Origin: Candidatus Pacearchaeota archaeon
Lineage (GTDB): Archaea > Nanobdellota > Nanobdellia > Pacearchaeales > GW2011-AR1
Length of the DNA stretch: 64,000 nt
Reading direction: 5' to 3'
Assembly: GCA_018303855.1 (NCBI GenBank)
Contig: JAGVXI010000007.1
Span: forward strand, 12,143-76,142
Under the pieces are notes generated by a model. The model was not told the DNA's origin, ran no database searches, and worked only from the letters and a program-made list of their open reading frames with translations. Below are positions 4,421-33,131 of the stretch, in pieces. A program made the position numbers and the translations under genes. The first letter of the stretch is position 1. The number at the start of each line of letters is the position of its first letter.

Positions 4421-4440
4421 AATTAAAACAACTAATTAAA

Positions 4441-5651: not shown

Positions 5652-5652
5652 A

Positions 5653-8952: not shown

Positions 8953-9178
8953 TGATTAATTATGTTTCTCTATTAATTAAGTGATATTTTATCCAACATC
9001 AGCTTCCATTTAACATGCATTACTTCTATTGATAATTCCCTTAATTAGGGCACTTGTTTTGGGAATTTCCCAGATAGATAATTCTGAAAAGAAAGTGTTA
9101 CGATTAACAGAATTATCTATAATTAAATAAAAAGTGCTTACATTAATTATTTAAAGATACCTTCTTTCCATTATAAAT

Positions 9179-13358: not shown

Positions 13359-13359
13359 A

Positions 13360-16188
13360 ATGACTGAAGAAAATTTTTCAATGGGAGGGGTTGATATTAG
13401 CTTTTCTGCAAAACCTGAACAAGCCTTAGAAAATAAAAAGAGCAGAATATTATCCAGCAAAAAAAGCATAGAAGAAAAAAGATTATGGAGCTTAATCAAA
13501 TTTCTCAAACAAAAAAAAGATTTTGCGGTTTATGTTGCTCTAGCTCTTATCATCTGGTTTGGGATTTATCTTAGGACACTTAATCTTAAAATAAACCCAT
13601 TAACAGGAAAACCATTTTTATGGAATTTTGCAACAAATGATTGGGCTATTGGTATGGAGTTTGACCCTTTTCTTTTCCTGCGATGGATGGAGTATATTGT
13701 TGCACACGGGAGATTAATGGTTATAGATACAATGCGATATGCACCTTTTGGGTATGATACTTCAAAAGAAACAGCGCTTTTTCCATATATGATGGCATGG
13801 ACTCATAAAATACTTGAATTCCTATCATTAACAGACAGCATAACTTATTCTGCTGTAATTTTCCCTGTGATTATGTTTATTCCAACAATTCTTATTCTTT
13901 TTCTGCTTACAAAAAAAGTATTTTACAAAGAGAGCAAAATTACCCAAAATTTGATTGCACTGCTTGCAACTATATTTTTTGCTCTCTTACCAATTTTATT
14001 GTCTAAAACAGGTGCAGGAGTAGCAGATAAAGAAAGTGCTGCTTTGTTATTCATGCTCCTGTCATTTTACTTTTTTTTAGAGGCGTTTAAGTCAGAAAAG
14101 TTCAAAAGAGGCTTGATTTTTGGGATTTTAGCAGGTATTTCAACAGGCTTAATGGCACTGCTTTGGGGCGGTGTTGTGTTTGTGTTTATTCCTGTATCAT
14201 TATCTGTTTTTATCTATTTTCTAATTGGAAAAGTTGAATTAAAAGAGTTTGTCATTTATTTTTCTTGGCTTGCTGTTTCTTTTTTACTCATGTTTAGTTT
14301 TTCCAATAGATACTCACTACAGAATATAACTATACCTGGAAGCCCTGAATCAATGCTAATTATTCTTTTTATTCTAGGCACAAGCTTTTTTTTCTTAAAA
14401 AACAAGAAAACCGCAAGTATAATTAACAGGGTGAAACTTCCTGCACAATTGACTTCAGTTATAATCTCAGGCATTGTACTGGTTATTTTAGCAGTCGTTA
14501 TCTTTGGGCTGAATACTATCATCAGCCCAATAAGTTTTTTAAAGAACTTTTTAGCGAATCCTGCTACAACCAGATTTGGGGTAAGTATTTCAGAAAACAG
14601 ACAACCATATTTTTTAGAAGATTGGGTTGTTTACTTTGGGCCAATTATTGGGGTTCCTTTTTATTTTTACATATTTTTCTTTGGGGTAATCCTTTTATTT
14701 TGGAATATGCTTAAACCTCTTAAGAAAATACACAAGATAACTTTAACCTTGAGCTATTTTATTTTTATCTGGGCAGTTATATTCACAAGATATTCTGAAA
14801 TAGGAGTTTTAAATGGAACGAACGGTGTGAGTTTATTTTTATATGCTTTGGGGCCAATAATTTTCTTTGGGACTATAATTTATACTTATATAAAAATTTA
14901 TAAAGAAAAAGAATTTTTTGAATTTGAAGGCATAAACTTCTCTTACTTATTTTATATTATTCTGTTTACATTCAGCATATTTGCTGCAAGAAGTGCTATA
15001 AGAATATTTTTAGTAGTAGGGGCAATAAGCGTGATTCCTGCTTCTTTTTTCACCATAAAAATATTCCAAAAATACTTTACAGAAAAAGAAGAACTTAACA
15101 AATTTTTTATGGGATTGCTAAGTTTAGCCCTTATTATTTCCCTCTTATTTAGTCTTTATTTTATTTACCAAAAGGATAAAAAAGTTATGCTAGAAGAGCT
15201 TATTACAACTAAATATGTACAACAATGGCAAAGAGCAATGGAGTGGGTTAGGACAAATACGCCGGAAAATGCAGTATTTGCTGCCTGGTGGGATTATGGT
15301 TATTGGCTGCAAACTCGCGGGAGAAGAACTACTATTTTGGATGGTGGAAACTCAATTCCTTATTGGAATCATCTTCTTGGGAAATATGCTCTTACTGGAA
15401 ACGATGAAAACAAAGCATTAGAATTTCTTTACACGCACAATGCAACGCATTTATTAATAGATTTAACAGATATTAAAAAGTATGCTGCAATTTCAGCAAT
15501 TGGCTCAAATGAAGATTATGACAGATTTTCCCAGATTACTCGATTTAACTTAGAAAAAGAAAAAATTTCTAATTTTGGCAATCAGACGCTCTTGCTTTAT
15601 CCTGGAGAATCTCAAACCTATGAGGATATAATATGGAATTTTGATGGGAAAGAGGTTTTGTTTCCAGCATATTTAACTCAGATTAAAGGTTTTGCTTTGA
15701 TTAAAGAAAAAGAAGGAAAAATTGTAAGAGTAGAAATTGTATTATCTGCACAAAACAAAGACTATGCAATTCCCTTAAGGTATGTTTATATAAGTTCTGA
15801 AAATAAACTTATTGATTTAGGTTCTGGATTAGAATCAATGTTTTTTATCTACCCTTCAGTATCACGAGAAGAGGCTATGGTTGATCTTAATATTTTTGGA
15901 GCAGCACTTTATATTCCTAAAAAAGCAAGGGAGTCAAATTTAGTACAACTTTATTTACTGGGGGGTGATTCAGAATATTTTAATCTTGAGCATATAGAAA
16001 GTGACAACATAATTGCAGCATGGAGGGAAGATGTTGCTAATGATATAGGGGAGTTTATTTTTTATGAAAACGATTTTCACGGCCCAATTAAAATTTGGAG
16101 TATTAATTATCCGCAAGATATAAAAACCAATCCAGAGTTTCTAAAAACAGAATTCCCAAGCAGGGGATTAGAATTGGCTAAACTATAA
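13360..16188 (+). CDS. aglB: archaeal oligosaccharyltransferase AglB/STT3, paralogue 2
   Basis: 942 aa with 'AAWWDYGYWLQ'. Same architecture as paralogue 1. The N-terminal 'LIKFLKQKKDFAVY' is shared with paralogue 1. Confidence 0.85.
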   Translation: MTEENFSMGGVDISFSAKPEQALENKKSRILSSKKSIEEKRLWSLIKFLKQKKDFAVYVALALIIWFGIYLRTLNLKINPLTGKPFLWNFATNDWAIGMEFDPFLFLRWMEYIVAHGRLMVIDTMRYAPFGYDTSKETALFPYMMAWTHKILEFLSLTDSITYSAVIFPVIMFIPTILILFLLTKKVFYKESKITQNLIALLATIFFALLPILLSKTGAGVADKESAALLFMLLSFYFFLEAFKSEKFKRGLIFGILAGISTGLMALLWGGVVFVFIPVSLSVFIYFLIGKVELKEFVIYFSWLAVSFLLMFSFSNRYSLQNITIPGSPESMLIILFILGTSFFFLKNKKTASIINRVKLPAQLTSVIISGIVLVILAVVIFGLNTIISPISFLKNFLANPATTRFGVSISENRQPYFLEDWVVYFGPIIGVPFYFYIFFFGVILLFWNMLKPLKKIHKITLTLSYFIFIWAVIFTRYSEIGVLNGTNGVSLFLYALGPIIFFGTIIYTYIKIYKEKEFFEFEGINFSYLFYIILFTFSIFAARSAIRIFLVVGAISVIPASFFTIKIFQKYFTEKEELNKFFMGLLSLALIISLLFSLYFIYQKDKKVMLEELITTKYVQQWQRAMEWVRTNTPENAVFAAWWDYGYWLQTRGRRTTILDGGNSIPYWNHLLGKYALTGNDENKALEFLYTHNATHLLIDLTDIKKYAAISAIGSNEDYDRFSQITRFNLEKEKISNFGNQTLLLYPGESQTYEDIIWNFDGKEVLFPAYLTQIKGFALIKEKEGKIVRVEIVLSAQNKDYAIPLRYVYISSENKLIDLGSGLESMFFIYPSVSREEAMVDLNIFGAALYIPKKARESNLVQLYLLGGDSEYFNLEHIESDNIIAAWREDVANDIGEFIFYENDFHGPIKIWSINYPQDIKTNPEFLKTEFPSRGLELAKL

Positions 16189-16210
16189 TTATCTTATAAA
16201 AAATATTAAA

Positions 16211-17233
16211 ATGGAATATTTATTACTTGCATCAATACTCTTAAGCTTTTTGATAACCCTATTTTTTCTTCCTGCCTGGATTAAAAAAGCCATAAAAATC
16301 GGGCTTATATGGGAGAATATGAATAAGTATAATCACCCCAAAAATATTGCTGGTTCTGGAGGGCTCATAGTAGTTTTTGGATTTGTTTTAGGGGCTTTAT
16401 CTTATATTGCAGTTAAAACTTTTATTTTAAGGACAGATATAACAACTGTTGAAATATTTGCATTACTTGTAACAATACTAATGGCAGGACTTGTTGGGCT
16501 GATAGATGATTTTCTTGGCTGGAGGCATGGAGGAATGTCTGCAAAGCTGAGAATATTTCTAATTTTCTTTGCTGCAATTCCATTAATGGTTATTAATGCA
16601 GGCGAATCTTTGATAAGTTTTCCGTTTATAGGGCAATTTAATCTTGGGTTAATCTACCCCCTGGTTTTTATTCCAATAGGAATAATTGGAGCATCAACAA
16701 CTTTTAACTTTCTTGCTGGCTATAATGGATTAGAAGCAAGCCAAGGCATTTTAATTTTATCTGCATTGGCAACAGTAACATGGTTTACTAATAACAGATG
16801 GTTAAGCTTAATTGCATTCTGCATGGTTGCATCTTTGTTTGCTTTTTATTTGTTTAACAAATATCCTGCGAAAGTTCTTCCAGGGGATATTCTTACCTAT
16901 TCTGTCGGAGCATTAATTGCAATTATGGCTATTTTAGGCAATATTGAGAGAATTGCAATATTCTTTTTCATCCCATATATATTAGAAACCGGGCTAAAAT
17001 TACGGGGAAGATTGAAAATACAAAGTTTTGGAAAAGTCAATGCAGACGACAGTTTGGATGTTCCTTTTAAAAAATTTTATGGACTTGAGCATATTGCCAT
17101 TTATATTCTAAAAAAGATTAAAATAAATGGAAAAGTGTATGAGAAGGACGTTGTATTTTTACTGAATACTTTTCAGGTAGCAATAATTATAGCTGGGTTG
17201 ATAATTTTTAGGAATTCAATATTTAAAATATAA
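16211..17233 (+). CDS. phospho-HexNAc transferase of the MraY/WecA/GPT (Glycos_transf_4) family, AglH/Alg7-like. It is likely the first step on dolichol phosphate.
   Basis: Polytopic. 'GLIDDFLGW' and 'NFLAGYNGLEA' motifs are characteristic of the family. Confidence 0.75.
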   Translation: MEYLLLASILLSFLITLFFLPAWIKKAIKIGLIWENMNKYNHPKNIAGSGGLIVVFGFVLGALSYIAVKTFILRTDITTVEIFALLVTILMAGLVGLIDDFLGWRHGGMSAKLRIFLIFFAAIPLMVINAGESLISFPFIGQFNLGLIYPLVFIPIGIIGASTTFNFLAGYNGLEASQGILILSALATVTWFTNNRWLSLIAFCMVASLFAFYLFNKYPAKVLPGDILTYSVGALIAIMAILGNIERIAIFFFIPYILETGLKLRGRLKIQSFGKVNADDSLDVPFKKFYGLEHIAIYILKKIKINGKVYEKDVVFLLNTFQVAIIIAGLIIFRNSIFKI

Positions 17234-17398
17234 TATAATGCTAAATTAATAATCAAACTTTATATTGATGGCAAAACCTTATTAAACATATTTGCTAAGA
17301 TTTTAGATTAACAAGCCGGGTTAAAAGTTGTAAATTGCACAGACTAAAATTAAACTAAAGTTTATCCTGCATAAACATTAAGATAAATAAGAACTAAA

Positions 17399-18619
17399 AT
17401 GAAAAAATTCCTGTCAAGTGAATTTGGAAAGGGGGCGTTTGTATTGTTTATAACTATAAATATCTTCAATTTTCTCAATTTTATTTTTCATTTTTCTATG
17501 GGAAGACTTCTTGGACCAGCAGATTATGGGGTGTTAGTTGTTCTAATGTCAATAGTCTACCTTTTCAGCATACCTACTGAAACAATACAGAACTTAATTT
17601 CAAGATACACCTCCAAATTTAATGTGAAAAATGAACACGGGAAAATAAAATTTATGATGAAAAAATCTTTGGGGAAAGTTTTTAAGGTTTCTTTCTGGGT
17701 TTTTGTTGTGGCGGTGCTAATTTCATTTCCATTAGCATCATTTTTAAGGATAAATTTTTGGCTTTTATTAATTGTGGACATTTTGATTCTTTATTCATTT
17801 GCTGAACCAGTTTTAAGGGGAGTGCTTCAGGGGAGAAAAAGATTCGGAATGCTTGGAATAAGCATGATACTCGAATCAACTTTTAAGCTTTTGTTTTCAA
17901 TTTCCTTTGTAATATTTGGAATAAATGTTTTTGGGGCAATTTTAGGGGTAGTTTTAGGCGGGGTTGCAAGTTTTGCATTTACCTTATTCTTTAACAGGGA
18001 CATACTTAAAAACAAAGAAGAAAAAACTTCATTTGATAAAATTCAGCAAACCAGCATTCCCTATATAGTTTCAATGTTTGTGATATTTTTAATTTTGAGC
18101 ACCGATATAATCTTGGCAAAAAGATTTTTTTCTGCTGAAACAGCAGGAATGTATGCTGTTTTGTCAATCTTAGGAAAGATTATATTCTTTGGGACATTTG
18201 CTATAAGTAAAGCAATGTTTCCTTTAACATCTGAAAGACACGATATAAATAAAGATTCCTCTCAATTATTTAAAAAATCATTACTCTTGGTGTTTATCTT
18301 GTGCTTAGTTGCTGTTTTTGCCTACTTAATCATTCCTGAACTAATTATATGGATTTTATATGGAAACCAGTATACTTCTGTAGCGAACCTGCTTATTTAT
18401 TCAGCAATTGCATTTAGCTTTTTGTCTTTAAGCAATGTTATAATCGTTTATGCTCTATCTATAAACAAGATAACAAATTATTTTTATTTGCCTATATTTT
18501 TTATAATCCAGATTACACTGCTTTTTATATTTCATAATACTCTTTTTGAGTATATTTTGGCTTTTATGGTTTCAACTATAATAATGTTTATAGGCACGCT
18601 ATTTTTTCTAAAAAAGTGA
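17399..18619 (+). CDS. MOP-superfamily polysaccharide/oligosaccharide flippase (Wzx/AglR-like)
   Basis: 406 aa, about 12 predicted TM helices, no catalytic motifs. It sits in the glycan cluster. Confidence 0.55.
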   Translation: MKKFLSSEFGKGAFVLFITINIFNFLNFIFHFSMGRLLGPADYGVLVVLMSIVYLFSIPTETIQNLISRYTSKFNVKNEHGKIKFMMKKSLGKVFKVSFWVFVVAVLISFPLASFLRINFWLLLIVDILILYSFAEPVLRGVLQGRKRFGMLGISMILESTFKLLFSISFVIFGINVFGAILGVVLGGVASFAFTLFFNRDILKNKEEKTSFDKIQQTSIPYIVSMFVIFLILSTDIILAKRFFSAETAGMYAVLSILGKIIFFGTFAISKAMFPLTSERHDINKDSSQLFKKSLLLVFILCLVAVFAYLIIPELIIWILYGNQYTSVANLLIYSAIAFSFLSLSNVIIVYALSINKITNYFYLPIFFIIQITLLFIFHNTLFEYILAFMVSTIIMFIGTLFFLKK

Positions 18620-22146: not shown

Positions 22147-23178
22147 ATGAAAGAGTTACCAAAAATCAGCATTGTTACTTGCACCTATAATGGCGAGAGG
22201 GTTATAGGAGAATATTTTAATGGCATCTTTGCCCAAGATTACCCAAAGAATAAAATTGAACTGATTCTTAATGACGGTGGTAGCACTGATAAAACACTTG
22301 AGATAATTAAAAAATATCAACAGAAATATCCTAAGATTGTCAAAATTTATCATAACCCAGAACAATATTCTATAGGCAGGGGATTTGGCATGGACATGGC
22401 AACAAGAAAGGCAAAAGGAGAGATTATTGTTCAATTAGACCAGGATAATATTCTTGTTCAAAAAGATTGGCTGAAAAATATGATACAAATCTTAATCAAA
22501 AACAAGGATATTACAGGGGTTCAGTCCAGGCTTTTTATTCCAGAAAAAGCAAGTTTAACAGACAAATATGTTAACGCTATTGGTATAGAAGACCCTTTTG
22601 CAATACCATATTCACTAAATGCACAGATTGCATTAAACCCAAAAAAATTTGATTATAATAAAAATGGCAAATTTTTTATTTACGAGATTAATAAAGAAAA
22701 GTTTTATTATGCGGGAGATAATGGTTTTGCTATAAGAAAAAAAGATTTTCTTGAAACAGGCGGTTATACACAGGATATTGATAATTTTTGGCGCATGGCT
22801 AATTCAAATAAAAAATATAAAATTGCTGTTCCAAAAGATATAAGATTATACCATAAAACAACAACAGAATTAAAGCACCTGTTAAACAAAAGGATATATT
22901 ATATCGGGCATTATCTTCTAAAAAATTATGAAAGGCGTGATTTTTACTGGTTTGATTTTAAAAAAAATACGTTTAAGCAAAACCTAAGATTTATCAAATC
23001 TGTTTTATTTAACCTGGCTTTTATCCCAGGTTTAATACAGGGGCTTAGTAAAGCTGTTAAAGAAAAAAAATCTTACTGGCTGATTCATTCATTTGTTTTA
23101 TTTTTAATAACCATTGGGTATATATACGCATTTTTTTATGCAAATATTTTTAAGAAACAAAGAGAAGCGGGTATTTGA
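22147..23178 (+). CDS. GT2 glycosyltransferase with a C-terminal TM region
   Basis: 'ISIVTCTYNGERVI', 'LNDGGSTDKT', 'QLDQDN'. Confidence 0.7.
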   Translation: MKELPKISIVTCTYNGERVIGEYFNGIFAQDYPKNKIELILNDGGSTDKTLEIIKKYQQKYPKIVKIYHNPEQYSIGRGFGMDMATRKAKGEIIVQLDQDNILVQKDWLKNMIQILIKNKDITGVQSRLFIPEKASLTDKYVNAIGIEDPFAIPYSLNAQIALNPKKFDYNKNGKFFIYEINKEKFYYAGDNGFAIRKKDFLETGGYTQDIDNFWRMANSNKKYKIAVPKDIRLYHKTTTELKHLLNKRIYYIGHYLLKNYERRDFYWFDFKKNTFKQNLRFIKSVLFNLAFIPGLIQGLSKAVKEKKSYWLIHSFVLFLITIGYIYAFFYANIFKKQREAGI

Positions 23179-23331: not shown

Positions 23332-25170
23332 TTAGCTATCCTTTATCGTCCAAACATCACCAAAAGTAAAAGGGGAAATTTCATCTGTGTCTGGTTCTTG
23401 GGGATTGTAAGTTTTGTCCATTGTATGCAGGATAATTGCTTTTTCCCCCCCAAGAACCATATAGCCATGCCAATAACCTGGGGGAATTTTGATTAATATT
23501 GGATTTGTTTCTCCTATAACAAATGTTTTAAAATCTGCTTCTCTACTGCCCCCTGCTTTTTCTTTAGCAACAACATATTTTATATTTCCTTTAATGCAAG
23601 TTGTATAGTCTGTCTGCTTGCTGTGGCGATGCAAACCTTTGATAACCCCTGGGTATAAAACAGAAACTAGCACTTGCCCAAATTTTCCGTCAAACAATTC
23701 ATCATCTTGCCTCAAAGTTTCAAATAAATATCCCTGCTCATCTGAAAATAGTTTTAATGGTTTTATTCTAATGTCTGAAAAAGTATTTTTAACTTCTGAA
23801 GGCAGATTATTAATAAATGTATTACTATTAGCTGTTGTGCTGTTTATACTCTGTTCTATTTGCGCATATTGTTTAATGACATTATCACCCCCAGTAAATT
23901 CTGGCTCTAAAATTCTTGCTTTTGGGTAATGTACAATAAATCTCCCGCCTCTTGCTAAAAAATCTGTTTCTTTTTTCATTATTTCTGCAGCATGATTCCA
24001 AGCTGCAAGCAAAGCATAGTCAACATTTTTATCATTGTGAAAATGCTCTGGAGAAACAATAGGGATATGTTTTCCTGGGCTAAGTAATCCTTGCTTGTAT
24101 GGTGTAGAATCAGAAATATAATCTAAAATTTCTCTTCCTACATTGCAATAATTTTGAATAATTGTTCCTTTTGAAGCAGCTGCATAACCAACAATTTTTT
24201 TATCTTGAGATTTAAGATGCAACAACAAATTCTGCAATTCTTTTTTCGATTGAGCAGTATTTTCAGCAAACTGAATATACGGATTAATAGTATCAATGCC
24301 TTTTTGTTTTTCTTGCTCTAAAAGCTGCAAAAATCTTTGGGTTTTGGGATAAGTCCCACGTTTGCATGCATAAACTCTCATTGAACCTCCATGAACCCAT
24401 TGTCTTTCTGCATCAAAAATTTCAAAACCATGCATCCTATAAAGATTTGACAAAGAAGTTAAAGAAAAATACCAGATATGCTCATCATATATTTGGTCAT
24501 AAGAAGTTTTTTCCAAAATATCAAGAATATAAGGGTCTTCTGTTATAAACACCCCATTATCATCTAACAGAGCATTCAATCCGCGCATTAAATCATGCAA
24601 ATCAATTATATTTAATGTTACATTTGTTGAAAGAACTACCCTAAACCTGCCTCTTGACAAAACAATACTTTTTGCAAGCTGTTCTGAAAAAAACTGAGTA
24701 ATTGTCTCTATTCCCTGCTGCTGGGCGATTTCTGCAACATTTTGCGATGGTTCAATTCCCAAAACATTTCTTCTATTTAAAAATGATTTTAGCATAATTC
24801 CATCATTGCTACCAATTTCTAAAACCTTTGGATTTCTGTCAAGAAAACGTTGCTCAACTTCGTGTGCGAGATCTGCAAAATGCTCCTGCATTGCCACTGA
24901 AGTGGATGAAAAAAAAGCATAGTGGGTCTTGCCTGTTTCATCTGGAACAATATATTTGGCATAAGGGACGATGTTTATAAGTTGAACCATATTACAATTT
25001 TCACAAAAACCAACATCCATATTATAAACATATTCAACAAAGCCTGGCTTTTGCAATTCAGAGGGCTTAAGAAAAGCATTTGCAACAGGCATTTTGCCGA
25101 ATGAAATAAACTTCACCAAATTTTGAGTTTTACACAAAGGGCAATGCTTTTTTTCATCAAAAACAACCAT
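23332..25170 (-). CDS. fusion protein: TylCIII-like NDP-hexose C-methyltransferase (Zn-binding domain, SAM-MTase and C-MT C-terminal domain) plus a C-terminal RmlC-like cupin (dTDP-sugar 3,5-epimerase/3,4-ketoisomerase fold)
   Basis: N-terminus 'CPLCKTQNL...FCENCNMVQL', 'VLEIGSNDGIML' and 'KIVGYAAASKGTI' make up the C-MT architecture. The last ~190 aa, 'FETLRQDD...KGLHRH...IKIPPGYWHGYMVLG...YNPQEPDTDEISP', match the RmlC/FdtA cupin family. Confidence 0.65.
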   Translation of the reverse strand: MVVFDEKKHCPLCKTQNLVKFISFGKMPVANAFLKPSELQKPGFVEYVYNMDVGFCENCNMVQLINIVPYAKYIVPDETGKTHYAFFSSTSVAMQEHFADLAHEVEQRFLDRNPKVLEIGSNDGIMLKSFLNRRNVLGIEPSQNVAEIAQQQGIETITQFFSEQLAKSIVLSRGRFRVVLSTNVTLNIIDLHDLMRGLNALLDDNGVFITEDPYILDILEKTSYDQIYDEHIWYFSLTSLSNLYRMHGFEIFDAERQWVHGGSMRVYACKRGTYPKTQRFLQLLEQEKQKGIDTINPYIQFAENTAQSKKELQNLLLHLKSQDKKIVGYAAASKGTIIQNYCNVGREILDYISDSTPYKQGLLSPGKHIPIVSPEHFHNDKNVDYALLAAWNHAAEIMKKETDFLARGGRFIVHYPKARILEPEFTGGDNVIKQYAQIEQSINSTTANSNTFINNLPSEVKNTFSDIRIKPLKLFSDEQGYLFETLRQDDELFDGKFGQVLVSVLYPGVIKGLHRHSKQTDYTTCIKGNIKYVVAKEKAGGSREADFKTFVIGETNPILIKIPPGYWHGYMVLGGEKAIILHTMDKTYNPQEPDTDEISPFTFGDVWTIKDS

Positions 25171-25217: not shown

Positions 25218-26189
25218 TTAGTTTAAATCATCTAACTTGATAACTTTTCCAGAAGAAAGATATTTGTTATTAACTTTATATCCCCTATTAGCTAAAATAC
25301 CTAAAGCCTGCGTGTATAAAACAACATTTTTATGGAATAATACGCTTAAAAATGTTCCCAAACAATCATCAATTATGCCAAATCCTTTTGTAAGGGAATT
25401 TGCCACAGGTTTATTTTTGAATAAATCTTCCTTAACATTTTTTCCCTTTTTCCCTAAAGAATCAAAAACATCTAAAATATCTGCAAATCTATATGCTAAT
25501 AATAAACCAGGATTTTCTGCTCTTTTAATAAGTTGCATATTCTCAAGGTTTAATTTAGTTACACCATTGAACTGGCTATCTAAACTTACCTCAAACCCCC
25601 TTGAAAATCCAACATAATCAATACCCCCTATTTCTTCTGGTTTTAAATTTAAATGTCTTGCTAGATTAAATCTTGGAAAACCATCCATATCCAACATGCC
25701 TTTAACTAATCCAGGATATTTTTCAGAAGCTTGGTTTAAATACATGCCAGCATGTTGACCTGCTGTAGGAATATCATAAAAATCAACTCCATGCTGGGTA
25801 ATCCCATCAGTTCTTCTTTGCAGCAAGAATATTTCATCTAAGGAAAGAGGCAATATCTCAGTACTTAGCCCATGAATAGATTCAAAAAGATTTGTTTCAT
25901 TTTTTTCTAAAGCTAATTTAAACTGTCCTAAAAGATATTTGTATTCTGTTACTCCACAATTAATGAGTAACTTATCTTCTGTATAATGCACATCTAATGC
26001 TGTTGGAATCATAGAACTTTTCCATCCTTTATTTTCAACATCCCATTTTGCCTCAGCATAATTTCTTAAAAAATTAGAATGAGTTATTTTGCCACAACTA
26101 TCAATTGCTGATGCATTAACGGCATTTACTGGGCTGTCAAATGTACAAGCATAAAATTCTTTCCTTGGGAAAGAGTTGTTTTTTTTCAT
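25218..26189 (-). CDS. hypothetical protein, member A of an uncharacterised paralogous pair
   Basis: Shares 'KGWKSS', 'QRR' and 'PRFNLARHLNLKPEEI' with 27757..28743 ('PRLFNLETQLDFRKKEI'). I recognise no known family. Confidence 0.55.
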   Translation of the reverse strand: MKKNNSFPRKEFYACTFDSPVNAVNASAIDSCGKITHSNFLRNYAEAKWDVENKGWKSSMIPTALDVHYTEDKLLINCGVTEYKYLLGQFKLALEKNETNLFESIHGLSTEILPLSLDEIFLLQRRTDGITQHGVDFYDIPTAGQHAGMYLNQASEKYPGLVKGMLDMDGFPRFNLARHLNLKPEEIGGIDYVGFSRGFEVSLDSQFNGVTKLNLENMQLIKRAENPGLLLAYRFADILDVFDSLGKKGKNVKEDLFKNKPVANSLTKGFGIIDDCLGTFLSVLFHKNVVLYTQALGILANRGYKVNNKYLSSGKVIKLDDLN

Positions 26190-26262: not shown

Positions 26263-27222
26263 TTGAAGAATTTCATGAGGCTTTTAGTCACAGGAGCTTT
26301 AGGGCATATTGGCTCTAAGCTAATAAGAGAATATGCTAAAAGGCAGGATATAGAGCTAATAAGAATTTTTGACAATATTTCTACGCAAAGATATTGCTCA
26401 TTGTTTAATTTGCCACAAAAGCGCGGGCTAAGATATGAGTTTATTGAAGCAGGCATAGATGACAAAAAAGCTTTAAAACGGGCTATGCAGAAAATTGATG
26501 TGGTTATTCATCTGGCTGCTATAACAGATGCTCCTTCTACTATTGCAACGCCAAAATTAACTCATAAAGTTAATTTCGAAGGAACTAAAAATGTGCTAAT
26601 GGCTGCAATTGATGCTAATGTTAAAAAATTTCTTTTTCCCTCTACAACAAGTGTTTATGGTGAAGCAGAAGGACTTGTAGATGAGAATTCTCCAGAAAAT
26701 ATGTATAAACCGGCTTCTCCTTATGCTGCTACAAAACTTAAGGCTGAAAAATTTATTTTAAAAACTGCAAAAGCAAAAGGGTTTAATGCAAATGTTCTTA
26801 GGATGGGAACTATTTTTGGAACAAGCATTGGCATGAGATTTCATACTGCAATAAATAAATTTTGTTGGTTAGCTGTAATGAACAAGCCATTAACTGTCTG
26901 GGATTCTGCATTAAACAGCATGCGTCCTTATTTGGGATTAAATGACTGCATAAGGGCTTTTTATTTCTTGGAAAAGCATGGAAAACCAGGAGAGCTGTAT
27001 AATGTTGTAACAAGAAATTATTCTATGAAAAATATAATTGAAACAATAAAGCAGTTTGTCCCAAATGTGCAAATTCAAATAACAAAATCTCCATTGCTTA
27101 ATCAAAAACCATATGAAGTCGGCAATGAGAAGATTAAGAAAATTGGATTTGAATTCAAGGACACTCTTTCTGGCGGAATAAGAGCAACTTTGGTGTTGAT
27201 GAAAGGAGTGAGAAGATTTTAG
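26263..27222 (+). CDS. NAD-dependent epimerase/dehydratase (extended SDR)
   Basis: 'LLVTGALGHIGSKL' Rossmann motif and 'YAATKLKAE' (YxxxK). Confidence 0.75.
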   Translation: MKNFMRLLVTGALGHIGSKLIREYAKRQDIELIRIFDNISTQRYCSLFNLPQKRGLRYEFIEAGIDDKKALKRAMQKIDVVIHLAAITDAPSTIATPKLTHKVNFEGTKNVLMAAIDANVKKFLFPSTTSVYGEAEGLVDENSPENMYKPASPYAATKLKAEKFILKTAKAKGFNANVLRMGTIFGTSIGMRFHTAINKFCWLAVMNKPLTVWDSALNSMRPYLGLNDCIRAFYFLEKHGKPGELYNVVTRNYSMKNIIETIKQFVPNVQIQITKSPLLNQKPYEVGNEKIKKIGFEFKDTLSGGIRATLVLMKGVRRF

Positions 27223-27756: not shown

Positions 27757-28743
27757 ATGAGTATGATAAATAGAAGAGCTAACCCATGGATTGGAGTTTA
27801 TCCATTTGAAGGAAGAGGATTAATAATCAATGATATAAACTTAGGGGTTGAGTTAAACCCGGAAATGGCTGAATATATTGAGAAATTATGGCAGCCAAAA
27901 GCTGAAAAAGGATGGAAAAGTTCCTGGATTGCTTTTATAGATAAATTTTACTGTTCTTCTGCTGATAAAGAAGGTTATCTTGATAATAAAAGTGTTGTTG
28001 TAATTGCTAGCGCAATACCTTTTTATTATGTTGATGGAATAAATAAAGCAATAGAACAAGGCAAAAATTTTGCGCCAGAGCAAGGTTATGTTAATTGTTT
28101 GTCTGTTGGATTTCCAACAGCTACAAAAGATGGAAAAGTTATTTTTCAAAGAAGAGCCCCTGATGTTCATTGCCCAAATATTTTAATCCATGAACCATGC
28201 GGTTATATGACTTCTCTTGCTTTTGCATCAAGAGCAGAATGTGATAAGCCAGAACACGCAAATGATCCTAGATTATTTAATCTTGAAACTCAACTTGACT
28301 TTAGAAAAAAAGAAATTGCAGATACTTTTGGTTTAGAGGCAGAAGCTGTTATTTATGAACCAGCCCAGGATTGCTTAGCTGCCGGTTGGCTCACAACAGA
28401 AATGTATTTTTCAACAACAGGAAAAATAGATGCTTCTGAAAAAGAATTAAAATTACCAGAAAAAGGGGAATTTTTCTTTGTTCCATTTGAATATTTGAAA
28501 GATTTGATAAATAATCAAGGAAGGCTCTCTAAAATTAATCCTGAAGGTTATCGTCCTGAAGACCCAAGAGAAATTCCTTTAATTGATGAATCTTTAGTTG
28601 GATTAATATGGGGTTATGAAAAACTTACAGGAGAAAAACTTGATATAGAAGAAACAGTTGACAGGCTTGGACATGGCGGTCTTGATATTAGGGTTATGGA
28701 TACTTCTTTTAGAAAAAGTTATGTTTTTCCAACAAGGTTTTGA
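27757..28743 (+). CDS. hypothetical protein, member B of the uncharacterised paralogous pair
   Basis: See 25218..26189. Same length class (328 vs 323 aa) and the same shared motifs. Confidence 0.55.
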   Translation: MSMINRRANPWIGVYPFEGRGLIINDINLGVELNPEMAEYIEKLWQPKAEKGWKSSWIAFIDKFYCSSADKEGYLDNKSVVVIASAIPFYYVDGINKAIEQGKNFAPEQGYVNCLSVGFPTATKDGKVIFQRRAPDVHCPNILIHEPCGYMTSLAFASRAECDKPEHANDPRLFNLETQLDFRKKEIADTFGLEAEAVIYEPAQDCLAAGWLTTEMYFSTTGKIDASEKELKLPEKGEFFFVPFEYLKDLINNQGRLSKINPEGYRPEDPREIPLIDESLVGLIWGYEKLTGEKLDIEETVDRLGHGGLDIRVMDTSFRKSYVFPTRF

Positions 28744-29711: not shown

Positions 29712-30716
29712 ATGGAAAACCTGCAAGAAATAAAAAGCATGCAAGGAAAAAAAGTATTAATAACAGGCGGCTTAGGATTTATAGGAAGCAATTTAGCAAA
29801 AAGGCTTGTGGGTGAGGGGGCAGAAGTTACATTATTTGATAAGATTGAAAATGATAGCGATAAGGTTAAAAATATAGCTGATAAATTAAAAATTGTTAAA
29901 GGTGATAATTTAGATAAGCAATTAATTGATGATATTATTAAGGAAAAAGATTACATTTTTCATTTTGCGTGGCAGACTGATTTAAAAGAATCTATGATTC
30001 ATCCTGGCCAGGATATAACCAGGGACATTATCGGCTTAATAATAATGCTTGAATCCTGCAGGAAATATAATAAAAATGTCAAAATAATTTTTGCAAGCAG
30101 TGTTACTGTTGCAGGGGAAATTGAAAAAATACCAGCAGGAGAAGATGTAGCTGAAAACCCCTTATCAATTTATGAAGCAAATAAATTAGCTGCTGAAAAA
30201 TATCTTTATGTTTATTTTAAAAATTATGGACTAAAAACTTGCGTGTTAAGATTGGCTAATGTTTTCGGTGAAGGACAAAGAATTGATAACCCCAATAGGG
30301 GGGTTTTAAATTTTATGATAGGCAGGGCTTTGCGTGGAGAACCTTTAACTGTTTATGGTAATGGAGAGTTTATCAGGGATTATACTTATGTTCAAAACTA
30401 TATTGATGCGTTTATTTTAGCTGCTCTTTCTGATAAAACAGACGGAGAATTTTATGTATTAGGAAGCGGAAAAGGATTAACCATGAATGAAGTGGTTCAT
30501 AAAATAAAAGAGATTACTAGAGAAATTACTGGAAAAGATGTTCTTATAGAACAAATTCCTTTTCCAGAATCAACCCATAAAATAGATAAAAGAAATTTTA
30601 TTGCAGATTACAGTAAATTCAAACAGGCAACTGGCTGGCAGCCAAAAATAGATTTTGAGTGGGGGTTAAGGAAAACTATTGAATTCTACTACATAAATTC
30701 TTTAAAAACAGCATAA
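29712..30716 (+). CDS. NAD-dependent epimerase/dehydratase (extended SDR)
   Basis: 'VLITGGLGFIGSNL' and 'YEANKLAAE'. Confidence 0.75.
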   Translation: MENLQEIKSMQGKKVLITGGLGFIGSNLAKRLVGEGAEVTLFDKIENDSDKVKNIADKLKIVKGDNLDKQLIDDIIKEKDYIFHFAWQTDLKESMIHPGQDITRDIIGLIIMLESCRKYNKNVKIIFASSVTVAGEIEKIPAGEDVAENPLSIYEANKLAAEKYLYVYFKNYGLKTCVLRLANVFGEGQRIDNPNRGVLNFMIGRALRGEPLTVYGNGEFIRDYTYVQNYIDAFILAALSDKTDGEFYVLGSGKGLTMNEVVHKIKEITREITGKDVLIEQIPFPESTHKIDKRNFIADYSKFKQATGWQPKIDFEWGLRKTIEFYYINSLKTA

Positions 30717-30728: not shown

Positions 30729-31826
30729 ATGGGTAGTTATAAAAAGGAGTATGAAGAGGTTTTTGAAGGTAAAACCATACTAATTACAGGCGGATTAGGA
30801 TTTATTGGGAGTAATCTTGCACATAAGTTAGTTGAACTAAATCCAAAAAAGGTTATTATTGCTGATGCACTTGTTAACGGATTAGGCGGAAGCATTGAGA
30901 ATATAAAAGAGATAAAGGATAAACTAGAAATTTATGCTGGTTTAGAAGGAGACATAAGGAACATACAAAAAATTAAAGAACTTGTTTCTCAAGCAGATTA
31001 TGTTTTTAATTTAGCTGGTTCAATTAGGCATACAGGGCATAATAGAGAAGACCTTATTTTTGATTCTGAAATAAACTTAATTTGTCAAACATTATTCTTA
31101 GAAGCATGCAGGCAATGCATGATTGAAAATCCTAAAAAAAACCTATCAATTATTTATGCAGGAACAAGAGACCAATACGGAAAAGTTAGCTTTATGGATT
31201 TGCCATTAAAAGAAGATTTTGTGCCAAAAACATTTACAGATTATCAATCTATTAGCAAGGGAGCGGCAGAAGCTCACCACATAATGCTACACTCCAGTTT
31301 AAAAGAACAAGGAATTGATGGCATTAAAATCACTTCTGTAAGAATAACCAATACTTATGGCCCAAGACAATCGCTAGATTGTGGGGGAGCTGTGCCAACT
31401 TTTATTAAAAAAATTCTTAGCGGAGGAAAGATAGAACTTTGGGGTGGCGGAGAAGTATTAAGAGACTTTAACCATGTTGATGATGTTGTTGATGCATTGA
31501 TATTATTAGCAGCATCTGATAAAACAGGAGGGCAGATTTACAATTTGGGATGCTGCATTGGAAAAGAAGGAATGAATACCCCGGTAGGAGGCAATCTCAC
31601 AACAATCATGAATCTAGCGCATCTTATTAGAGATATTTCTGGCTTGGGTGATGTAACTGCAATTCCTTATCCAAAAGAAAGAGCAAGCATTGAACCAGGA
31701 CATTGTTGTTCTGATATTTCAAAGATTGCCAGACTTGGATGGATTCCAAAATATAGCTTGAGAAAAGGATTAGAAGAAACAATTAGATTTTATAAAGAAA
31801 AAACATTAAATAATAAAGATTATTGA
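30729..31826 (+). CDS. NAD-dependent epimerase/dehydratase (extended SDR)
   Basis: 'ILITGGLGFIGSNL' and 'YQSISKGAAE'. Confidence 0.75.
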   Translation: MGSYKKEYEEVFEGKTILITGGLGFIGSNLAHKLVELNPKKVIIADALVNGLGGSIENIKEIKDKLEIYAGLEGDIRNIQKIKELVSQADYVFNLAGSIRHTGHNREDLIFDSEINLICQTLFLEACRQCMIENPKKNLSIIYAGTRDQYGKVSFMDLPLKEDFVPKTFTDYQSISKGAAEAHHIMLHSSLKEQGIDGIKITSVRITNTYGPRQSLDCGGAVPTFIKKILSGGKIELWGGGEVLRDFNHVDDVVDALILLAASDKTGGQIYNLGCCIGKEGMNTPVGGNLTTIMNLAHLIRDISGLGDVTAIPYPKERASIEPGHCCSDISKIARLGWIPKYSLRKGLEETIRFYKEKTLNNKDY

Positions 31827-32027: not shown

Positions 32028-33131
32028 ATGATACCAATTGGCAATTTAAGAAGAAAATATCTTGTTCGGAAAAATGAGTTTGACTCAGCTATTTTACGTG
32101 TGCTTGATAGTGGGTGGTTTATTCTTGGAAAAGAAGTTGAAGAATTTGAAAAAGAATTCGCAGCATATTGCGGAAAAAATTATGGTATTGGAGTTGGTAG
32201 TGGGTTTGATGCTTTGTTGCTTGCATTAAAAGCACTTGAGATTGGAGATGGGGATGAAATAATAACTGTGCCACACACTGCCATACCAACAGTTGCAGCA
32301 ATTATAGCTAGCGGCGCAATTCCAAAATTTGTAGATGTAGGTGAAGATTGCTTGATGGATGTTAACAAAATTAAAGAAGTTATTACAGAAAAAACAAAAG
32401 CGATTATGCCTGTTCATTTATACGGGCAAGCTTGCGACATGGAACAAATATTAGAAATTGCTAACCAACACAACCTTTTTATTATTGAAGATTGCGCACA
32501 GGCTCATGGAGCAGAATACAAAGGAAAAAGAGTCCCAATTAGCACTCTTGGATGCTTTAGTTTTTATCCAAGCAAAAACATGGGGGCATTTGGAGACGGA
32601 GGCATGATTGTGACAGATAGTGAAGCAATTAGCACCAGGCTAAAAATGCTTAGAAATTACGGGCAAGCAACAAGATATCACGCTAAGATGCAAGGGTATA
32701 ATACAAGGCTTGATGAATTACATGCAACAATACTTAGAGTTCAATTGAAATATCTTAATGAAGATAATGAGATAAGAAAACAAATTGCATTAAGATATAA
32801 TTTGCTATTAAAAGAAATAGTGACTATACCAAATGTAAACCAAAACAAAAAACATGTTTATCATCTTTATGTTATAAAAACAGACAAAAGAGACAGATTA
32901 AAAGAAAAGCTAAATGAACTTGGAATTGGAACAGAAATTCATTACCCTATCCCATTACATTTGCAAGAAGCTTACAAATATTTAGGATATAAAAATGGGG
33001 ATTTTGCACAAACAGAAAAAGCAGCAAAAGAGATTCTTTCAATCCCAATATATCCTGAATTAACAGATACTGAAATAGAAACTGTTGCTCAAAAAATCAA
33101 GGAAGTTATGCAAAATATGGCTGGTCCTTGA
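32028..33131 (+). CDS. DegT/DnrJ/EryC1/StrS-family PLP-dependent sugar aminotransferase
   Basis: 'WFILGKEVEEFEKEFAAYCG', 'ITVPHTAIPTVAAI' and 'FSFYPSKNMGAFGDGG' are typical of the family. Confidence 0.8.
   Translation: MIPIGNLRRKYLVRKNEFDSAILRVLDSGWFILGKEVEEFEKEFAAYCGKNYGIGVGSGFDALLLALKALEIGDGDEIITVPHTAIPTVAAIIASGAIPKFVDVGEDCLMDVNKIKEVITEKTKAIMPVHLYGQACDMEQILEIANQHNLFIIEDCAQAHGAEYKGKRVPISTLGCFSFYPSKNMGAFGDGGMIVTDSEAISTRLKMLRNYGQATRYHAKMQGYNTRLDELHATILRVQLKYLNEDNEIRKQIALRYNLLLKEIVTIPNVNQNKKHVYHLYVIKTDKRDRLKEKLNELGIGTEIHYPIPLHLQEAYKYLGYKNGDFAQTEKAAKEILSIPIYPELTDTEIETVAQKIKEVMQNMAGP

Follow-up and report, generated by a model that had tools for sequence, protein, structure and literature searches.

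What would an archaeon make with a sugar methyltransferase and a cupin carried on one polypeptide? The question is raised by a 64-kb stretch of DNA from a DPANN archaeon, which was analyzed along its whole length and is referred to here as the window. Reading the open reading frames (ORFs) of the window gave a single unbroken frame (positions 23332 to 25170, minus strand) that begins with ATG and encodes a fusion protein of 612 amino acids (aa). Both enzyme types in the fusion are known, and its probable product is a methyl-branched 6-deoxy sugar. On balance, we lean toward a bifunctional C-methyltransferase/epimerase that would act on an NDP-4-keto-6-deoxyhexose, with a product that would lead to the N-glycan of this archaeon.

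The domains were delineated by Pfam, PDB sequence search, and comparison with homologs, and all lie on the minus strand within the one ORF. An N-terminal Cys4 zinc domain (PF08421; residues 10 to 69, positions 24964 to 25143; E = 2.5e-15, 56.8 bits against a threshold of 31.3) contains C10, C13, C56, and C59. It is followed by a class I SAM methyltransferase core (PF13489; residues 99 to 251, positions 24418 to 24876; E = 5.6e-17, 62.4 bits), in which alignment to TcaB9 and KijD1 and conservation mark an E118-I-G-S-N-D-G motif and Y228, E230, and H231, and by a C-methyltransferase C-terminal domain (PF08484; residues 259 to 416, positions 23923 to 24396; E = 3e-49, 167.3 bits). The last 145 residues (468 to 612, positions 23335 to 23769) form an RmlC-superfamily cupin. 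It was matched above the gathering score both by PF00908 (dTDP_sugar_isom; residues 466 to 592, E = 2.8e-12, 47.1 to 51.2 bits against 27) and by PF14667 (residues 476 to 595, E = 6.2e-11, 42.8 to 45.6 bits against 28.7, covering profile positions 2 to 110 of 111), and the assignment was borne out by an AF2 model, a Foldseek fold match, and conservation. The architecture that had originally been predicted, a complete three-domain sugar C-methyltransferase followed in frame by an RmlC-like cupin, was thus recovered by profile in every part.

Between the two halves lies a linker of 46 aa (residues 422 to 467, positions 23770 to 23907), visible as gapped alignment columns, which is polar, of low complexity, and not conserved. 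Across 97 family members the linker stays in frame and polar but varies in length from 5 to 71 aa (median, 20), which argues for a tether that keeps the two domains close to each other rather than for a structured channel between them. The idea that covalent fusion would channel a labile intermediate therefore keeps its premise, the fusion, and loses the structured channel. Mean identity to the query is 60% for the cupin and 67% for the methyltransferase, and the cupin half is evidently under selection.

A sequencing or assembly error, such as a frameshift joining two neighboring genes, could create an ORF of this kind, and the gene pair does occur in split form in loci L006, L023, and L024 and with a frameshift in L020. 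The identical 612-aa protein was nevertheless found in two different samples, on contigs assembled independently of each other, and about 100 of the best 120 clusters at 90% identity share the fused architecture (49 to 70% identity, about 555 to 630 aa), with members drawn from ENA, JGI, NCBI, and Logan sources. Among the 19 species-representative genomes that carry the methyltransferase/cupin pair, 16 have an intact fusion, 2 a split pair (L023 and L024), and 1 the frameshifted copy, and the linkers, whatever their length, keep the frame. We give an artefact practically no chance, and the independent assemblies, the fused clusters, and the intact loci rule it out. The fusion is real and lineage-wide: its carriers are almost all DPANN archaea, and it is the dominant form of the gene pair, not a rare one, across metagenome-assembled genomes (MAGs) of Pace-, Woese-, and Nanoarchaeota. 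The architecture is already abundant in public databases, where it goes under generic names; we found no papers on a methyltransferase-cupin fusion in the literature searched.

The exceptions to the standard arrangement are informative as well. In the three split loci the two genes are adjacent, each with its own stop and ATG, and free-standing cupin genes that adjoin the methyltransferase encode 140 to 144 aa. One lineage (P0118/P0113) carries the fusion in the opposite order. A reverse-order fusion in L005 adjoins a 2,3-dehydratase (PF03559), a DegT-family gene, and genes for short-chain dehydrogenases/reductases (SDRs); by its domain content, this set is a full EvaA-E-type complement, with the cupin in the epimerase slot. 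A six-frame search of the 64-kb window with the cupin profile (E ≤ 10) returned no second RmlC-like cupin, and of the 19 DPANN loci, L020 alone contains an additional cupin of this kind. Adjacent split genes, reversal of the domain order, and the scarcity of any other cupin together argue that the two halves are functionally coupled.

The methyltransferase half is the more familiar of the two. In a PDB sequence search, residues 10 to 421 aligned end to end with KijD1 (5t64, E = 2.9e-87), TcaB9 (3ndi, 1.8e-83), and MtmC (4rv9, 2.6e-77), and the fusion protein shares the zinc, SAM methyltransferase, and PF08484 domains of these enzymes and of EvaC and TylC3. It differs from them in its C-terminal cupin, which it alone carries, in its archaeal host, and in its context, which is N-glycosylation rather than antibiotic biosynthesis. 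The four cysteines align with those of TcaB9 and are kept in 92 to 97 of 97 homologs. Once a 2-residue chain offset is applied, Y84, Y228, E230, and H231, kept in 93 to 97 of the same homologs, align with Tyr76, Tyr222, Glu224, and His225 of TcaB9, which we take to be its active-site residues, with His225 as the base. With its three domains present and the catalytic Tyr, Glu, and His intact, the N-terminal half is a predicted complete TylC3/TcaB9-type NDP-hexose C-methyltransferase, as the original prediction had it. One position near the sugar departs from the pattern: His181 of TcaB9 and KijD1 is Asn187 here, and Asn in 95 of 97 homologs. This suggests a sugar substrate other than the one used by the closest solved enzymes, rather than a loss of activity. 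The characterized C-3 methyltransferases closest to it take 2-deoxy sugars as substrates; among the ORFs scanned in the window, no 2,3-dehydratase was detected.

The cupin half is less conventional. Its AF2 model is confident (pLDDT 93.7), and the best Foldseek match is 3ejk (TMq 0.83, E = 1.4e-11), a "dTDP sugar isomerase" from Desulfovibrio that was solved by structural genomics and is uncharacterized, and in which Trp replaces the first His; NovW (TMq 0.77) and RmlC structures (0.70 to 0.78) follow. At the sequence level, residues from about 455 to 610 align with RmlC structures at E values of 2e-7 to 1e-3, and a profile of the cupin searched against the PDB matched RmlC at 7e-10, CapF at 2e-5, QdtA at 0.014, and FdtA at 0.11. 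The cupin reads K511-G-x-H514-x-H516-x4-D521 ... P563-x-G-x2-H568, with H582 and Y588 further on. Cupin motif 1 is present (G508-x5-H514-x-H516-x4-D521-x6-G528, against a consensus of G-x5-H-x-H-x3,4-E-x6-G); of motif 2 (G-x5-P-x-G-x2-H-x3-N), P563-x-G565-x2-H568 is there, and the spacing of the leading Gly and the trailing Asn are absent. Across 95 homologs H514, Y522, C525, and G528 are invariant, H516 is kept in 94, position 521 is always acidic (48 Asp, 47 Glu), and H568 is His in 81 and Arg in 14.

Compared with RmlC, this is a familiar fold with a different active site. The catalytic His of RmlC (His63/64) is kept as H514, within G-L-H, in every RmlC alignment and in 95 of 95 homologs. 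The position of the RmlC acid Tyr133/134 is H582 in the fusion cupin, and the family has His there in 62 members, Tyr in 19, and Asp in 14. The region of RmlC Asp170, which is presumably the partner of the His base, is missing, and the fusion protein ends at residue 612, soon after a conserved G-D-x-W; alignments stop at about residues 145 to 160 of the 183 to 202 in RmlC, and the fusion cupin is about 35 residues shorter at its C terminus. RmlC Lys73/74, which contacts the substrate (PMC9095892), is D521 here and Asp or Glu in the family. The NDP-sugar contacts are largely kept, with Gln, Ser, Arg, Glu, His, and Tyr of RmlC aligning with Q499, S503, K511, E484, H568, and Y588. With three of the four RmlC catalytic residues changed or missing, and with a score of 40.7 bits against the 155.75-bit cutoff of the rmlC equivalog model (TIGR01221), the cupin is, as far as its residues tell, not a canonical RmlC, and an RmlC-type active site could not be upheld.

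The fusion cupin is placed by sequence in a large separate clade of cupins of about 150 aa, which is without a characterized member. The clade comprises several hundred clusters at 50% identity (435 representatives at E < 1e-10) and is matched by the CapF-type profile PF14667 as often as by PF00908. Its free-standing members have the same size and the HxH...D...H signature, and both this signature and motif 1 occur in more than 90% of the 150 representatives listed. The clade membership and the HxH...D/E...H site explain why the proposed residue test, in which a retained His/Tyr would mark an epimerase and a His pair a ketoisomerase, gave a mixed answer: the catalytic His and the HxH pair are both there, and the Lys, Tyr, and Asp of RmlC are not.

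A precedent for such a site may be CapF/WbjC (PF14667; 3st7, 4yrd). CapF is a zinc-dependent cupin epimerase with a K-G-x-H-x-H pocket (Lys285, Gly286, His288, His290), of which His290 is a zinc ligand, and it is fused to a partner enzyme (PMC5393024). K511-G512-x-H514-x-H516 has the same spacing, the comparison being one of spacing. In CapF/WbjC the cupin is fused to an SDR and here to a C-methyltransferase; both fusions would nonetheless place a cupin beside an enzyme handling the same 4-keto sugar. CapF was not found among the top 50 Foldseek matches of the cupin. We propose that the active site is His-based (H514, H516, D521, H568, and H582), rather than built on the His, Lys, Tyr, and Asp of RmlC, and that it is possibly metal assisted as in CapF; the Arg at position 568 in 14 of 95 homologs weakens the case for a strict four-ligand metal site.

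An alternative hypothesis is that the cupin is an FdtA/QdtA-like 3,4-ketoisomerase that moves the C-4 keto group to C-3, giving a 3-keto sugar or, with DegT, a 3-amino sugar, in which case methylation would precede isomerization or fall on another carbon. An HxH...acid...His pattern suits ketoisomerases too, and the near-invariant HxH pair falls opposite residues 51 and 53 of QdtA, although in an ungapped register only (profile 41 to 129 against chain 38 to 119); we take His51 and His53 to be the QdtA catalytic pair. The domain, at about 145 aa, is of FdtA/QdtA rather than RmlC size and is missing the RmlC Lys, Tyr, and Asp; the FdtA profile PF05523 matches 81 of 107 members of the wider cupin clade, and a DegT gene lies in the cluster. 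Against this, PF05523 scores the fusion cupin itself at 17.7 to 21.6 bits, below its gathering score of 23; the QdtA and FdtA matches in the PDB are marginal next to that of RmlC; and FdtA, QdtA, and WxcM structures are absent from the Foldseek top 50. The DegT gene is missing from roughly half of the loci, is paired with SDR3, and is best matched by 4-aminotransferase models, and TylC3-type methyltransferases, to our knowledge, act on 4-keto sugars only. We consider a ketoisomerase unlikely.

The loss of most RmlC catalytic residues, together with the flexible linker, could also mean that the cupin is noncatalytic and works instead by dimerization or by binding the NDP-sugar, so as to hold substrate or product for the methyltransferase. 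A strand-swapped dimer is the obligate state of proteins with the RmlC fold, so that the cupin would at the least dimerize the fusion enzyme. Yet H514, H516, D/E521, Y522, and H568, which point into the pocket, are the most conserved residues of the domain and are kept across hundreds of free-standing relatives. A purely structural role would leave the free-standing cupin genes beside the methyltransferase unexplained, and in the Eva-like set of L005 the cupin is the sole candidate for the epimerase slot. A noncatalytic cupin seems to us quite improbable, and an epimerase the better reading.

Epimerases of the RmlC family act directly before or after C-methyltransferases in sugar pathways, and the pairs EvaC and EvaD, TylC3 and TylK, and NovU and NovW catalyze consecutive methylation and epimerization steps as separate proteins. 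RmlC, EvaD, NovW, ChmJ, WbcA, and the GDP-heptose epimerases of Campylobacter jejuni all share the cupin fold and, unlike the domain described here, are free-standing. The archaeal pair draws on the same two families as the Eva, Tyl, and Nov pairs, which have canonical RmlC-type sites, but combines them in one polypeptide or in adjacent genes and with a different cupin active site.

The genes around the fusion point to a deoxysugar pathway. RmlB (positions 33849 to 34847, minus strand) was identified as a dTDP-glucose 4,6-dehydratase by TIGR01181 (433 bits against a cutoff of 365) and by its TDEVYG and YSASK motifs. Beside it is a short-form, 248-aa RmlA-like glucose-1-phosphate nucleotidylyltransferase (33106 to 33852, minus strand; PF00483), for which rmlA NCBIfam models were best but below cutoff, and which is co-conserved at 64 to 75% identity in 9 of 19 loci. 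The most constant neighbor of the fusion is SDR1 (26263 to 27222, plus strand), an extended SDR with a YxxxK motif and without the dehydratase D-E pair, found in 16 of 19 loci at 60 to 70% identity (one further match, the 17th, reaches only 32%); it is a candidate 4-ketoreductase. SDR2 (29712 to 30716, plus strand), an extended SDR of the reductase/epimerase type, has a match in 16 of 19 loci, 13 of them at ≥49% identity. SDR3 (30729 to 31826, plus strand) is usually paired, in the loci compared, with the gene for the DegT-family aminotransferase (32028 to 33131, plus strand), which follows SDR3 and not the fusion and whose best models (PseC, ArnB, and WecE) all score below cutoff. The linkage of RmlA, RmlB, and the three SDRs to the fusion, noted originally in this one locus, thus recurs in other genomes. 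A B12-radical-SAM gene (36681 to 38237) that had been grouped with them does not share in this linkage; other loci hold only paralogs of 23 to 25% identity at varying positions, and the gene was ruled out as a pathway member.

On the other side of the fusion, and convergent with it, a GT2-family glycosyltransferase gene (GT2c; 22147 to 23178, plus strand) follows the fusion at 59 to 73% identity in six loci and encodes a candidate transferase for the sugar product. Locus comparison also identified an N-glycosylation core (10365 to 18619, plus strand) made up of two tandem STT3/AglB paralogs (10365 to 13358 and 13360 to 16188), a GT4-family phosphosugar transferase (16211 to 17233), and a flippase (17399 to 18619). 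The same AglB/GT4/flippase order was found in the Pacearchaeota loci L003/L009, L013, and L025, and in L009, L013, and L025, as here, such a cluster houses the fusion gene.

We propose that RmlA and RmlB would supply NDP-4-keto-6-deoxy-D-glucose, most likely dTDP linked, and that His231, the counterpart of TcaB9 His225, would deprotonate the carbon next to the 4-keto group so that it could accept a methyl group from SAM. The likeliest site is C-3, to judge from the closest solved enzymes. The tethered cupin would bind the same NDP-4-keto sugar and invert a neighboring stereocenter by proton removal and re-addition, at C-5 if methylation at C-3 has already taken place and at C-3 if it has yet to. 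The 4-keto group may then be reduced by one of the SDRs that are always adjacent or, in some genomes, aminated by DegT. Finally, the GT2 enzyme would attach this methyl-branched 6-deoxy sugar to the N-glycan on its dolichol carrier, for transfer to protein by AglB. Two or three SDRs and DegT exceed the needs of one linear pathway, so the assignment of steps is loose. The branched 6-deoxyhexose that had been predicted for the glycan is the most economical product; its proposed L configuration is not inferable.

The cupin may instead act first, as a NovW-like 3-epimerase, followed by NovU-like methylation at C-5, to give a noviose-type 5-C-methyl sugar. NovW and NovU, which belong to exactly these two families, act one after the other, NovW is among the structural matches of the cupin, and the ORFs scanned hold no 2-deoxygenation genes, as in the noviose pathway. 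The closest solved relatives of the methyltransferase, at E values of 1e-77 to 1e-87, are all C-3 methyltransferases, however, and we think methylation at C-5 improbable relative to the C-3 route outlined above.

More broadly, and tentatively, DPANN archaea of the Pace-, Woese-, and Nanoarchaeota might carry on their N-glycans a 6-deoxy or 4-amino-4,6-dideoxy sugar with a C-methyl branch, made by a single bifunctional enzyme. In its epimerase half, the small-cupin clade would have replaced the RmlC machinery with a CapF-like, possibly metal-assisted HxH-D/E-H site, and an orphan NUDT22-like Nudix protein would be an added component of the pathway. We know of no C-methyl-branched 6-deoxy sugar from any archaeon and of no glycan structures for DPANN archaea, and we found no report of C-methyl sugars in archaeal glycans in the literature searched. 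If the proposal is correct, this would be the first branched-chain sugar in an archaeal N-glycan, on surface glycans that probably mediate attachment of DPANN cells to their hosts. The clade of cupins of about 150 aa that lies between RmlC, CapF, and FdtA would gain its first lead as to function, and the synthesis of methyl-branched deoxysugars would have, in a naturally fused methyltransferase-epimerase, a handy tool in one protein. Since the two halves come from well-understood families already known to work in consecutive steps, and since the architecture is publicly abundant, we regard the advance as incremental rather than conceptual.

A triple fusion (P0049) carries a cytidylyltransferase-like domain; considered as a pointer to the nucleotide carrier, this domain was set aside, as the P0049 neighborhood gives no clear link. 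Directly upstream of the fusion and co-directional with it is an orphan gene (25218 to 26189, minus strand) for a 323-aa protein with a NUDT22-like double-Nudix fold. Searches of Pfam, NCBIfam, and PDB sequences gave no match to this protein, which resembles NUDT22 at the fold level only, and no EvaA-like structure was found within its top 50 fold matches. As an accessory partner, it lies close to the fusion in L005 and in 5 of the 19 genome loci; in L005 it coexists with a true 2,3-dehydratase, which argues against its being a simple substitute for that enzyme. Compared as possible paralogs, the 323-aa protein and a 328-aa protein, likewise without an assigned family, shared a KGWKSS stretch only (E = 0.026).

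The gene at 23332-25170 (minus strand) is a single unbroken ORF with an ATG start that encodes 612 aa. Pfam placed a PF08421 zinc domain at residues 10 to 69, a class I SAM methyltransferase domain at residues 99 to 251, and the PF08484 C-methyltransferase C-terminal domain at residues 259 to 416 (E value, 3e-49), followed by a cupin that matched PF00908 (dTDP_sugar_isom; residues 466 to 592; 47.1 bits versus a gathering score of 27) and PF14667 (residues 476 to 595; 42.8 bits versus 28.7). Matches of the protein to FdtA and Cupin_2 were below threshold in the Pfam search. In a search of solved structures, KijD1, TcaB9, and MtmC matched residues 10 to 421 end to end (2.9e-87 to 2.6e-77), and RmlC structures (2e-7 to 1e-3) and the CapF cupin (1e-3) matched residues ~455 to 610. 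These matches confirm the original prediction of a methyltransferase and an RmlC-like cupin in one ORF, with the domains it proposed to delineate by PF08421, PF08484, and PF00908 all placed. The interdomain linker is polar and unconserved (5 to 71 aa; median, 20); that of the window's protein is long, at 46 aa.

The same 612-aa protein was found, identical, on two contigs assembled independently from different samples. Searching 5.8 billion proteins yielded 5,140 relatives; among the best 120 of these, which we inspected, about 100 were distinct 90%-identity clusters of ~555 to 630 aa with the same domain order and 49 to 70% identity. These fused clusters stem from ENA, JGI, NCBI, and Logan, and the named ones are Pacearchaeota, Nanoarchaeota, or “archaeon.” When one genome per species was scanned for the methyltransferase/cupin pair, it turned up in 19 genomes (MAGs of Pace-, Woese-, and Nanoarchaeota and one 5.9-kb contig labeled Omnitrophota), with an intact fusion in 16, adjacent split genes in 2 (loci L023 and L024), and a frameshift in 1 (L020). 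The split and frameshifted copies are what could be cited in favor of an assembly error, but the two independent assemblies, the ~100 fused clusters, and the 16 intact species genomes rule this alternative out, and an artifact is exceedingly improbable. The fusion is real, conserved, and uncharacterized; it joins two known, consecutive enzyme types, the second of which has an atypical active site. Within the literature searched, no paper reported a methyltransferase-cupin fusion or archaeal glycans bearing C-methyl sugars. Database names for the fused proteins include “methyltransferase domain-containing protein,” “methylation protein EvaC,” and “dTDP-4-dehydrorhamnose 3,5-epimerase-like enzyme.”

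The only “bacterial” fused copy (L012) is on the 5.9-kb contig, DATJPO010000055.1, labeled Candidatus Omnitrophota bacterium. This copy resembles the DPANN loci both in gene order (unk328, SDR3, SDR1, SDR2, fusion) and in sequence (54 to 64% identity), and the contig was probably mis-binned or, otherwise, reflects a recent transfer. In L020, a Woesearchaeota contig, a frameshift within the cupin domain splits the fusion (688-2480) into ORFs 688-2226 and 2202-2480, so that the gene is a pseudogene or else was misread in sequencing. A separate 193-aa RmlC-like ORF (80-658) is present on this contig as well.

In the METHYLTRANSFERASE half, the zinc cysteines C10, C13, C56, and C59 are kept in 92 to 97 of 97 homologs, as are the SAM motif E118-I-G-S-N-D-G and residues Y84, Y228, E230, and H231, which align with Tyr76, Tyr222, Glu224, and His225 of TcaB9. 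With these conserved residues, the methyltransferase domain is catalytically equipped. The TcaB9 numbering and residue roles, including His225 as the proposed base, follow the Holden laboratory papers; the 2-residue offset of the TcaB9 PDB chain was confirmed in the H181N mutant chain 4e2w, which has Asn at index 183. The sole difference among the residues compared is TcaB9 His181, which is Asn187 in the fusion protein and Asn in 95 of 97 homologs, suggesting that the sugar pocket differs from that of the enzymes for 3-amino-2,3,6-trideoxy sugars. His181 excepted, all sequence criteria tested assign this half to the TylC3/TcaB9 family.

The cupin (residues 458 to 612) yielded a confident AlphaFold2 model (pLDDT, 93.7), whose first-ranked Foldseek match in the PDB was 3ejk (TMq, 0.83), an uncharacterized 157-residue “dTDP sugar isomerase” from Desulfovibrio, followed by RmlC, ChmJ, NovW, EvaD, WbcA, and Campylobacter GDP-heptose epimerases (TMq, 0.70 to 0.78). 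In RmlC, a His serves as the base and a Tyr as the acid, and the sugar site is lined by Ser52, His64, Lys74, and Tyr134 (PMC9095892). All HMM alignments paired H514 with the RmlC His, D521 with the Lys, and H582 with the Tyr, and the fusion protein stops short of the region holding RmlC Asp170; the cupin belongs to the same RmlC-like superfamily but lacks the Lys, Tyr, and Asp and falls short of the rmlC equivalog score. Among 95 homologs, H514 was kept in all and H516 in 94, position 521 was Asp (48) or Glu (47), position 568 was His (81) or Arg (14), and position 582 was His (62), Tyr (19), or Asp (14); we consider a noncatalytic cupin improbable. G508-x5-H-x-H-x4-D-x6-G528 corresponds to metal-binding motif 1, a textbook motif of cupins, and P563-x-G-x2-H568 corresponds to the core of motif 2, although the leading Gly spacing and the trailing Asn of that motif are lacking.

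The CapF cupin domain is a Zn-dependent epimerase acting on the 4-keto sugar from CapE; Lys285, Gly286, and His288 sit in its pocket together with His290, which binds the Zn (PMC5393024). This K-G-x-H-x-H spacing is equal to that of K511-G512-x-H514-x-H516 in the fusion cupin, which is above the PF14667 threshold too, yet has a different fusion partner. By ungapped register, H514 and H516 would also lie opposite QdtA residues 51 and 53, the two His residues that this ketoisomerase uses in catalysis, so the pocket residues fit an epimerase and a ketoisomerase alike. A ketoisomerase, to which the QdtA register points, is nonetheless unlikely, as the cupin is under the FdtA threshold. Of the catalytic residues that the original prediction had proposed to check, the His base (H514) is present and H514-x-H516 may correspond to the His pair, but the Tyr acid of RmlC is replaced by H582.

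Among 1.84 billion representatives, a profile built from the cupin domain matched 2,048 clusters at E values of ≤1e-3 and 435 at ≤1e-10. The best 150 of the 2,048 were nearly all free-standing proteins of 135 to 180 aa, with H514 in 141/147, H516 in 145/147, D/E521 in 138/147, and H568 in 129/140. PF14667 was matched by 105, PF00908 by 102, and FdtA by 81 of the 107 members scanned, none of which reached an NCBIfam cutoff; this mixture places the cupin in an uncharacterized clade within the RmlC-like clan, intermediate between RmlC, FdtA, and the cupins of CapF/WbuC. Single representatives of the clade are fused elsewhere to a GT2 glycosyltransferase, an SDR/dTDP-glucose-dehydratase-like domain, or HNH nucleases (two cases), and these small cupins seem prone to fusing with sugar-pathway enzymes. 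One 710-aa relative (P0049; locus L031, 9001-11133) is a triple fusion with a cytidylyltransferase-like domain (PF01467, DPYHEGH motif) after the cupin; its neighbors are an SDR-SDR fusion (671 aa), two DegT genes, a PglD-like acetyltransferase, and a CDP-alcohol phosphatidyltransferase.

Several observations together argue that the two halves cooperate. In L006, L023, and L024, a 415- to 418-aa methyltransferase with its own stop (59 to 64% identity to the methyltransferase half) is followed, after 1, 133, and 1 bp, respectively, by a 140- to 144-aa cupin gene with its own ATG. In two other relatives (P0118 and P0113; 561 to 562 aa) the cupin is N-terminal (residues 8 to 152) and the methyltransferase follows, and this reverse order indicates that fusion arose independently in their lineage. 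The reverse fusion in L005 adjoins an NDP-hexose 2,3-dehydratase (PF03559), a DegT aminotransferase, and SDRs. Epivancosamine biosynthesis uses a five-enzyme set, EvaA to EvaE; by comparison, the L005 set is complete, the cupin taking the place of EvaD. No second RmlC-like cupin occurs within the 64-kb window, and an extra one was found in only 1 of the 19 DPANN loci (L020). Conservation is also comparable in the two halves, with identity to the query averaging 67% in the methyltransferase and 60% in the cupin. In bacterial methyltransferase-only relatives (L026 and L029; 39 to 43% identity), a cupin closer to RmlC is encoded separately, ~2 kb away.

The L005 contig (Logan SRR28417441) carries three related genes: the reverse-order fusion (2140-3801), a 553-aa methyltransferase whose C-terminal domain is a different, weak Cupin_2 (8001-9689), and a 199-aa fragment comprising the end of PF08484 and a cupin (16224-16823), apparently left over from a fusion of normal order.

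The first genes of the window form an archaeal operon for ribosomal proteins (S4e, L5, L6, L18, S5, and L15), followed by SecY, an EMC3-like insertase, prefoldin, and SpoIIM (all within 1-10039). The glycan cluster comes directly next, headed by tandem plus-strand STT3/AglB oligosaccharyltransferase paralogs (10365-13358 and 13360-16188; 997 and 942 aa; 1 bp apart), which are followed by a GT4-family phosphosugar transferase, a flippase, three GT2s, and two methyltransferases. Another Pacearchaeota genome (GCA_002763075.1) has the same gene order from prefoldin through to the fusion, and the shared prefoldin-SpoIIM-STT3 junction places the cluster in a conserved chromosomal core and not on a mobile island. 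By tblastn, both STT3/AglB paralogs were matched in L025 and only the second in L009, L013, and L021.

SDR1 (26263-27222, plus strand) and SDR2 (29712-30716, plus strand), divergent and just upstream of the fusion, are constant neighbors across the 19 loci, with matches in 17 (60 to 70% identity in 16) and 16 (at least 49% in 13), respectively. SDR3 (30729-31826, plus strand) was matched in 15 loci, RmlB (33849-34847, minus strand) in 15 (at least 44% identity in 9), RmlA (33106-33852, minus strand) in 9 (64 to 75%), and DegT (32028-33131, plus strand) in 9, usually alongside SDR3; GT2c (22147-23178, plus strand) lies downstream of the fusion in 6. The association with RmlA, RmlB, and SDRs that the original prediction noted recurs, but the B12-radical-SAM gene (36681-38237), also listed there, is not coconserved with the fusion across the 19 loci and is rejected as a pathway member. 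RmlB scored 433 bits versus the dTDP-glucose 4,6-dehydratase equivalog cutoff of 365. It carries the dehydratase motif TDEVYG, which is lacking in SDR1 and SDR2; these two look like reductases or epimerases.

Alongside these domain identities, conserved residues, and gene linkages, we infer a route, to which we lean with moderate confidence, in which RmlA and RmlB would supply NDP-4-keto-6-deoxyglucose and His231 of the methyltransferase domain would form an enolate, allowing methylation of the carbon beside the ketone. All solved relatives point by analogy to C-3 as the most likely carbon; a variant of this idea, combining C-5 methylation with 3-epimerization, is rather unlikely. In the favored C-3 route, the tethered cupin would then epimerize the remaining acidic position by His-mediated proton transfer, with a metal or D/E521 in place of the Lys of RmlC. 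C-4 would be reduced by an adjacent SDR or aminated by DegT, and a GT2 enzyme would add the sugar onto the dolichol-linked glycan that serves AglB.

The gene just upstream of the fusion, on the same strand, encodes a 323-aa orphan protein (25218-26189) with no Pfam, NCBIfam, or PDB sequence match. Its family comprises 30 clusters, all “hypothetical” and without a Pfam domain, the named ones being from DPANN archaea; for eight members, the longest contig is exactly as long as that of a fusion protein, suggesting that they share contigs. The gene recurs close to the fusion in L005 and in 5 of the 19 genome loci. A confident AlphaFold2 model of the protein (pLDDT, 92) resembled human NUDT22, a double-Nudix-fold UDP-sugar hydrolase, in Foldseek (E value, 2.8e-11; TMq, ~0.56). 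A second protein (27757-28743, plus strand; 328 aa), with no Pfam or NCBIfam match, is present in 6 of 19 fusion loci at 31 to 61% identity; the two proteins have only a KGWKSS-containing stretch in common (E value, 0.026), and a distant kinship is possible. Farther along, a 916-aa protein (44919-47669, plus strand) unites two nucleotidyltransferase domains (NTP_transf_3 and NTP_transferase) with KTI12/AAA_33 kinase-like and C-terminal histidine-phosphatase domains, an unusual combination that is possibly a multistep sugar-activation enzyme.
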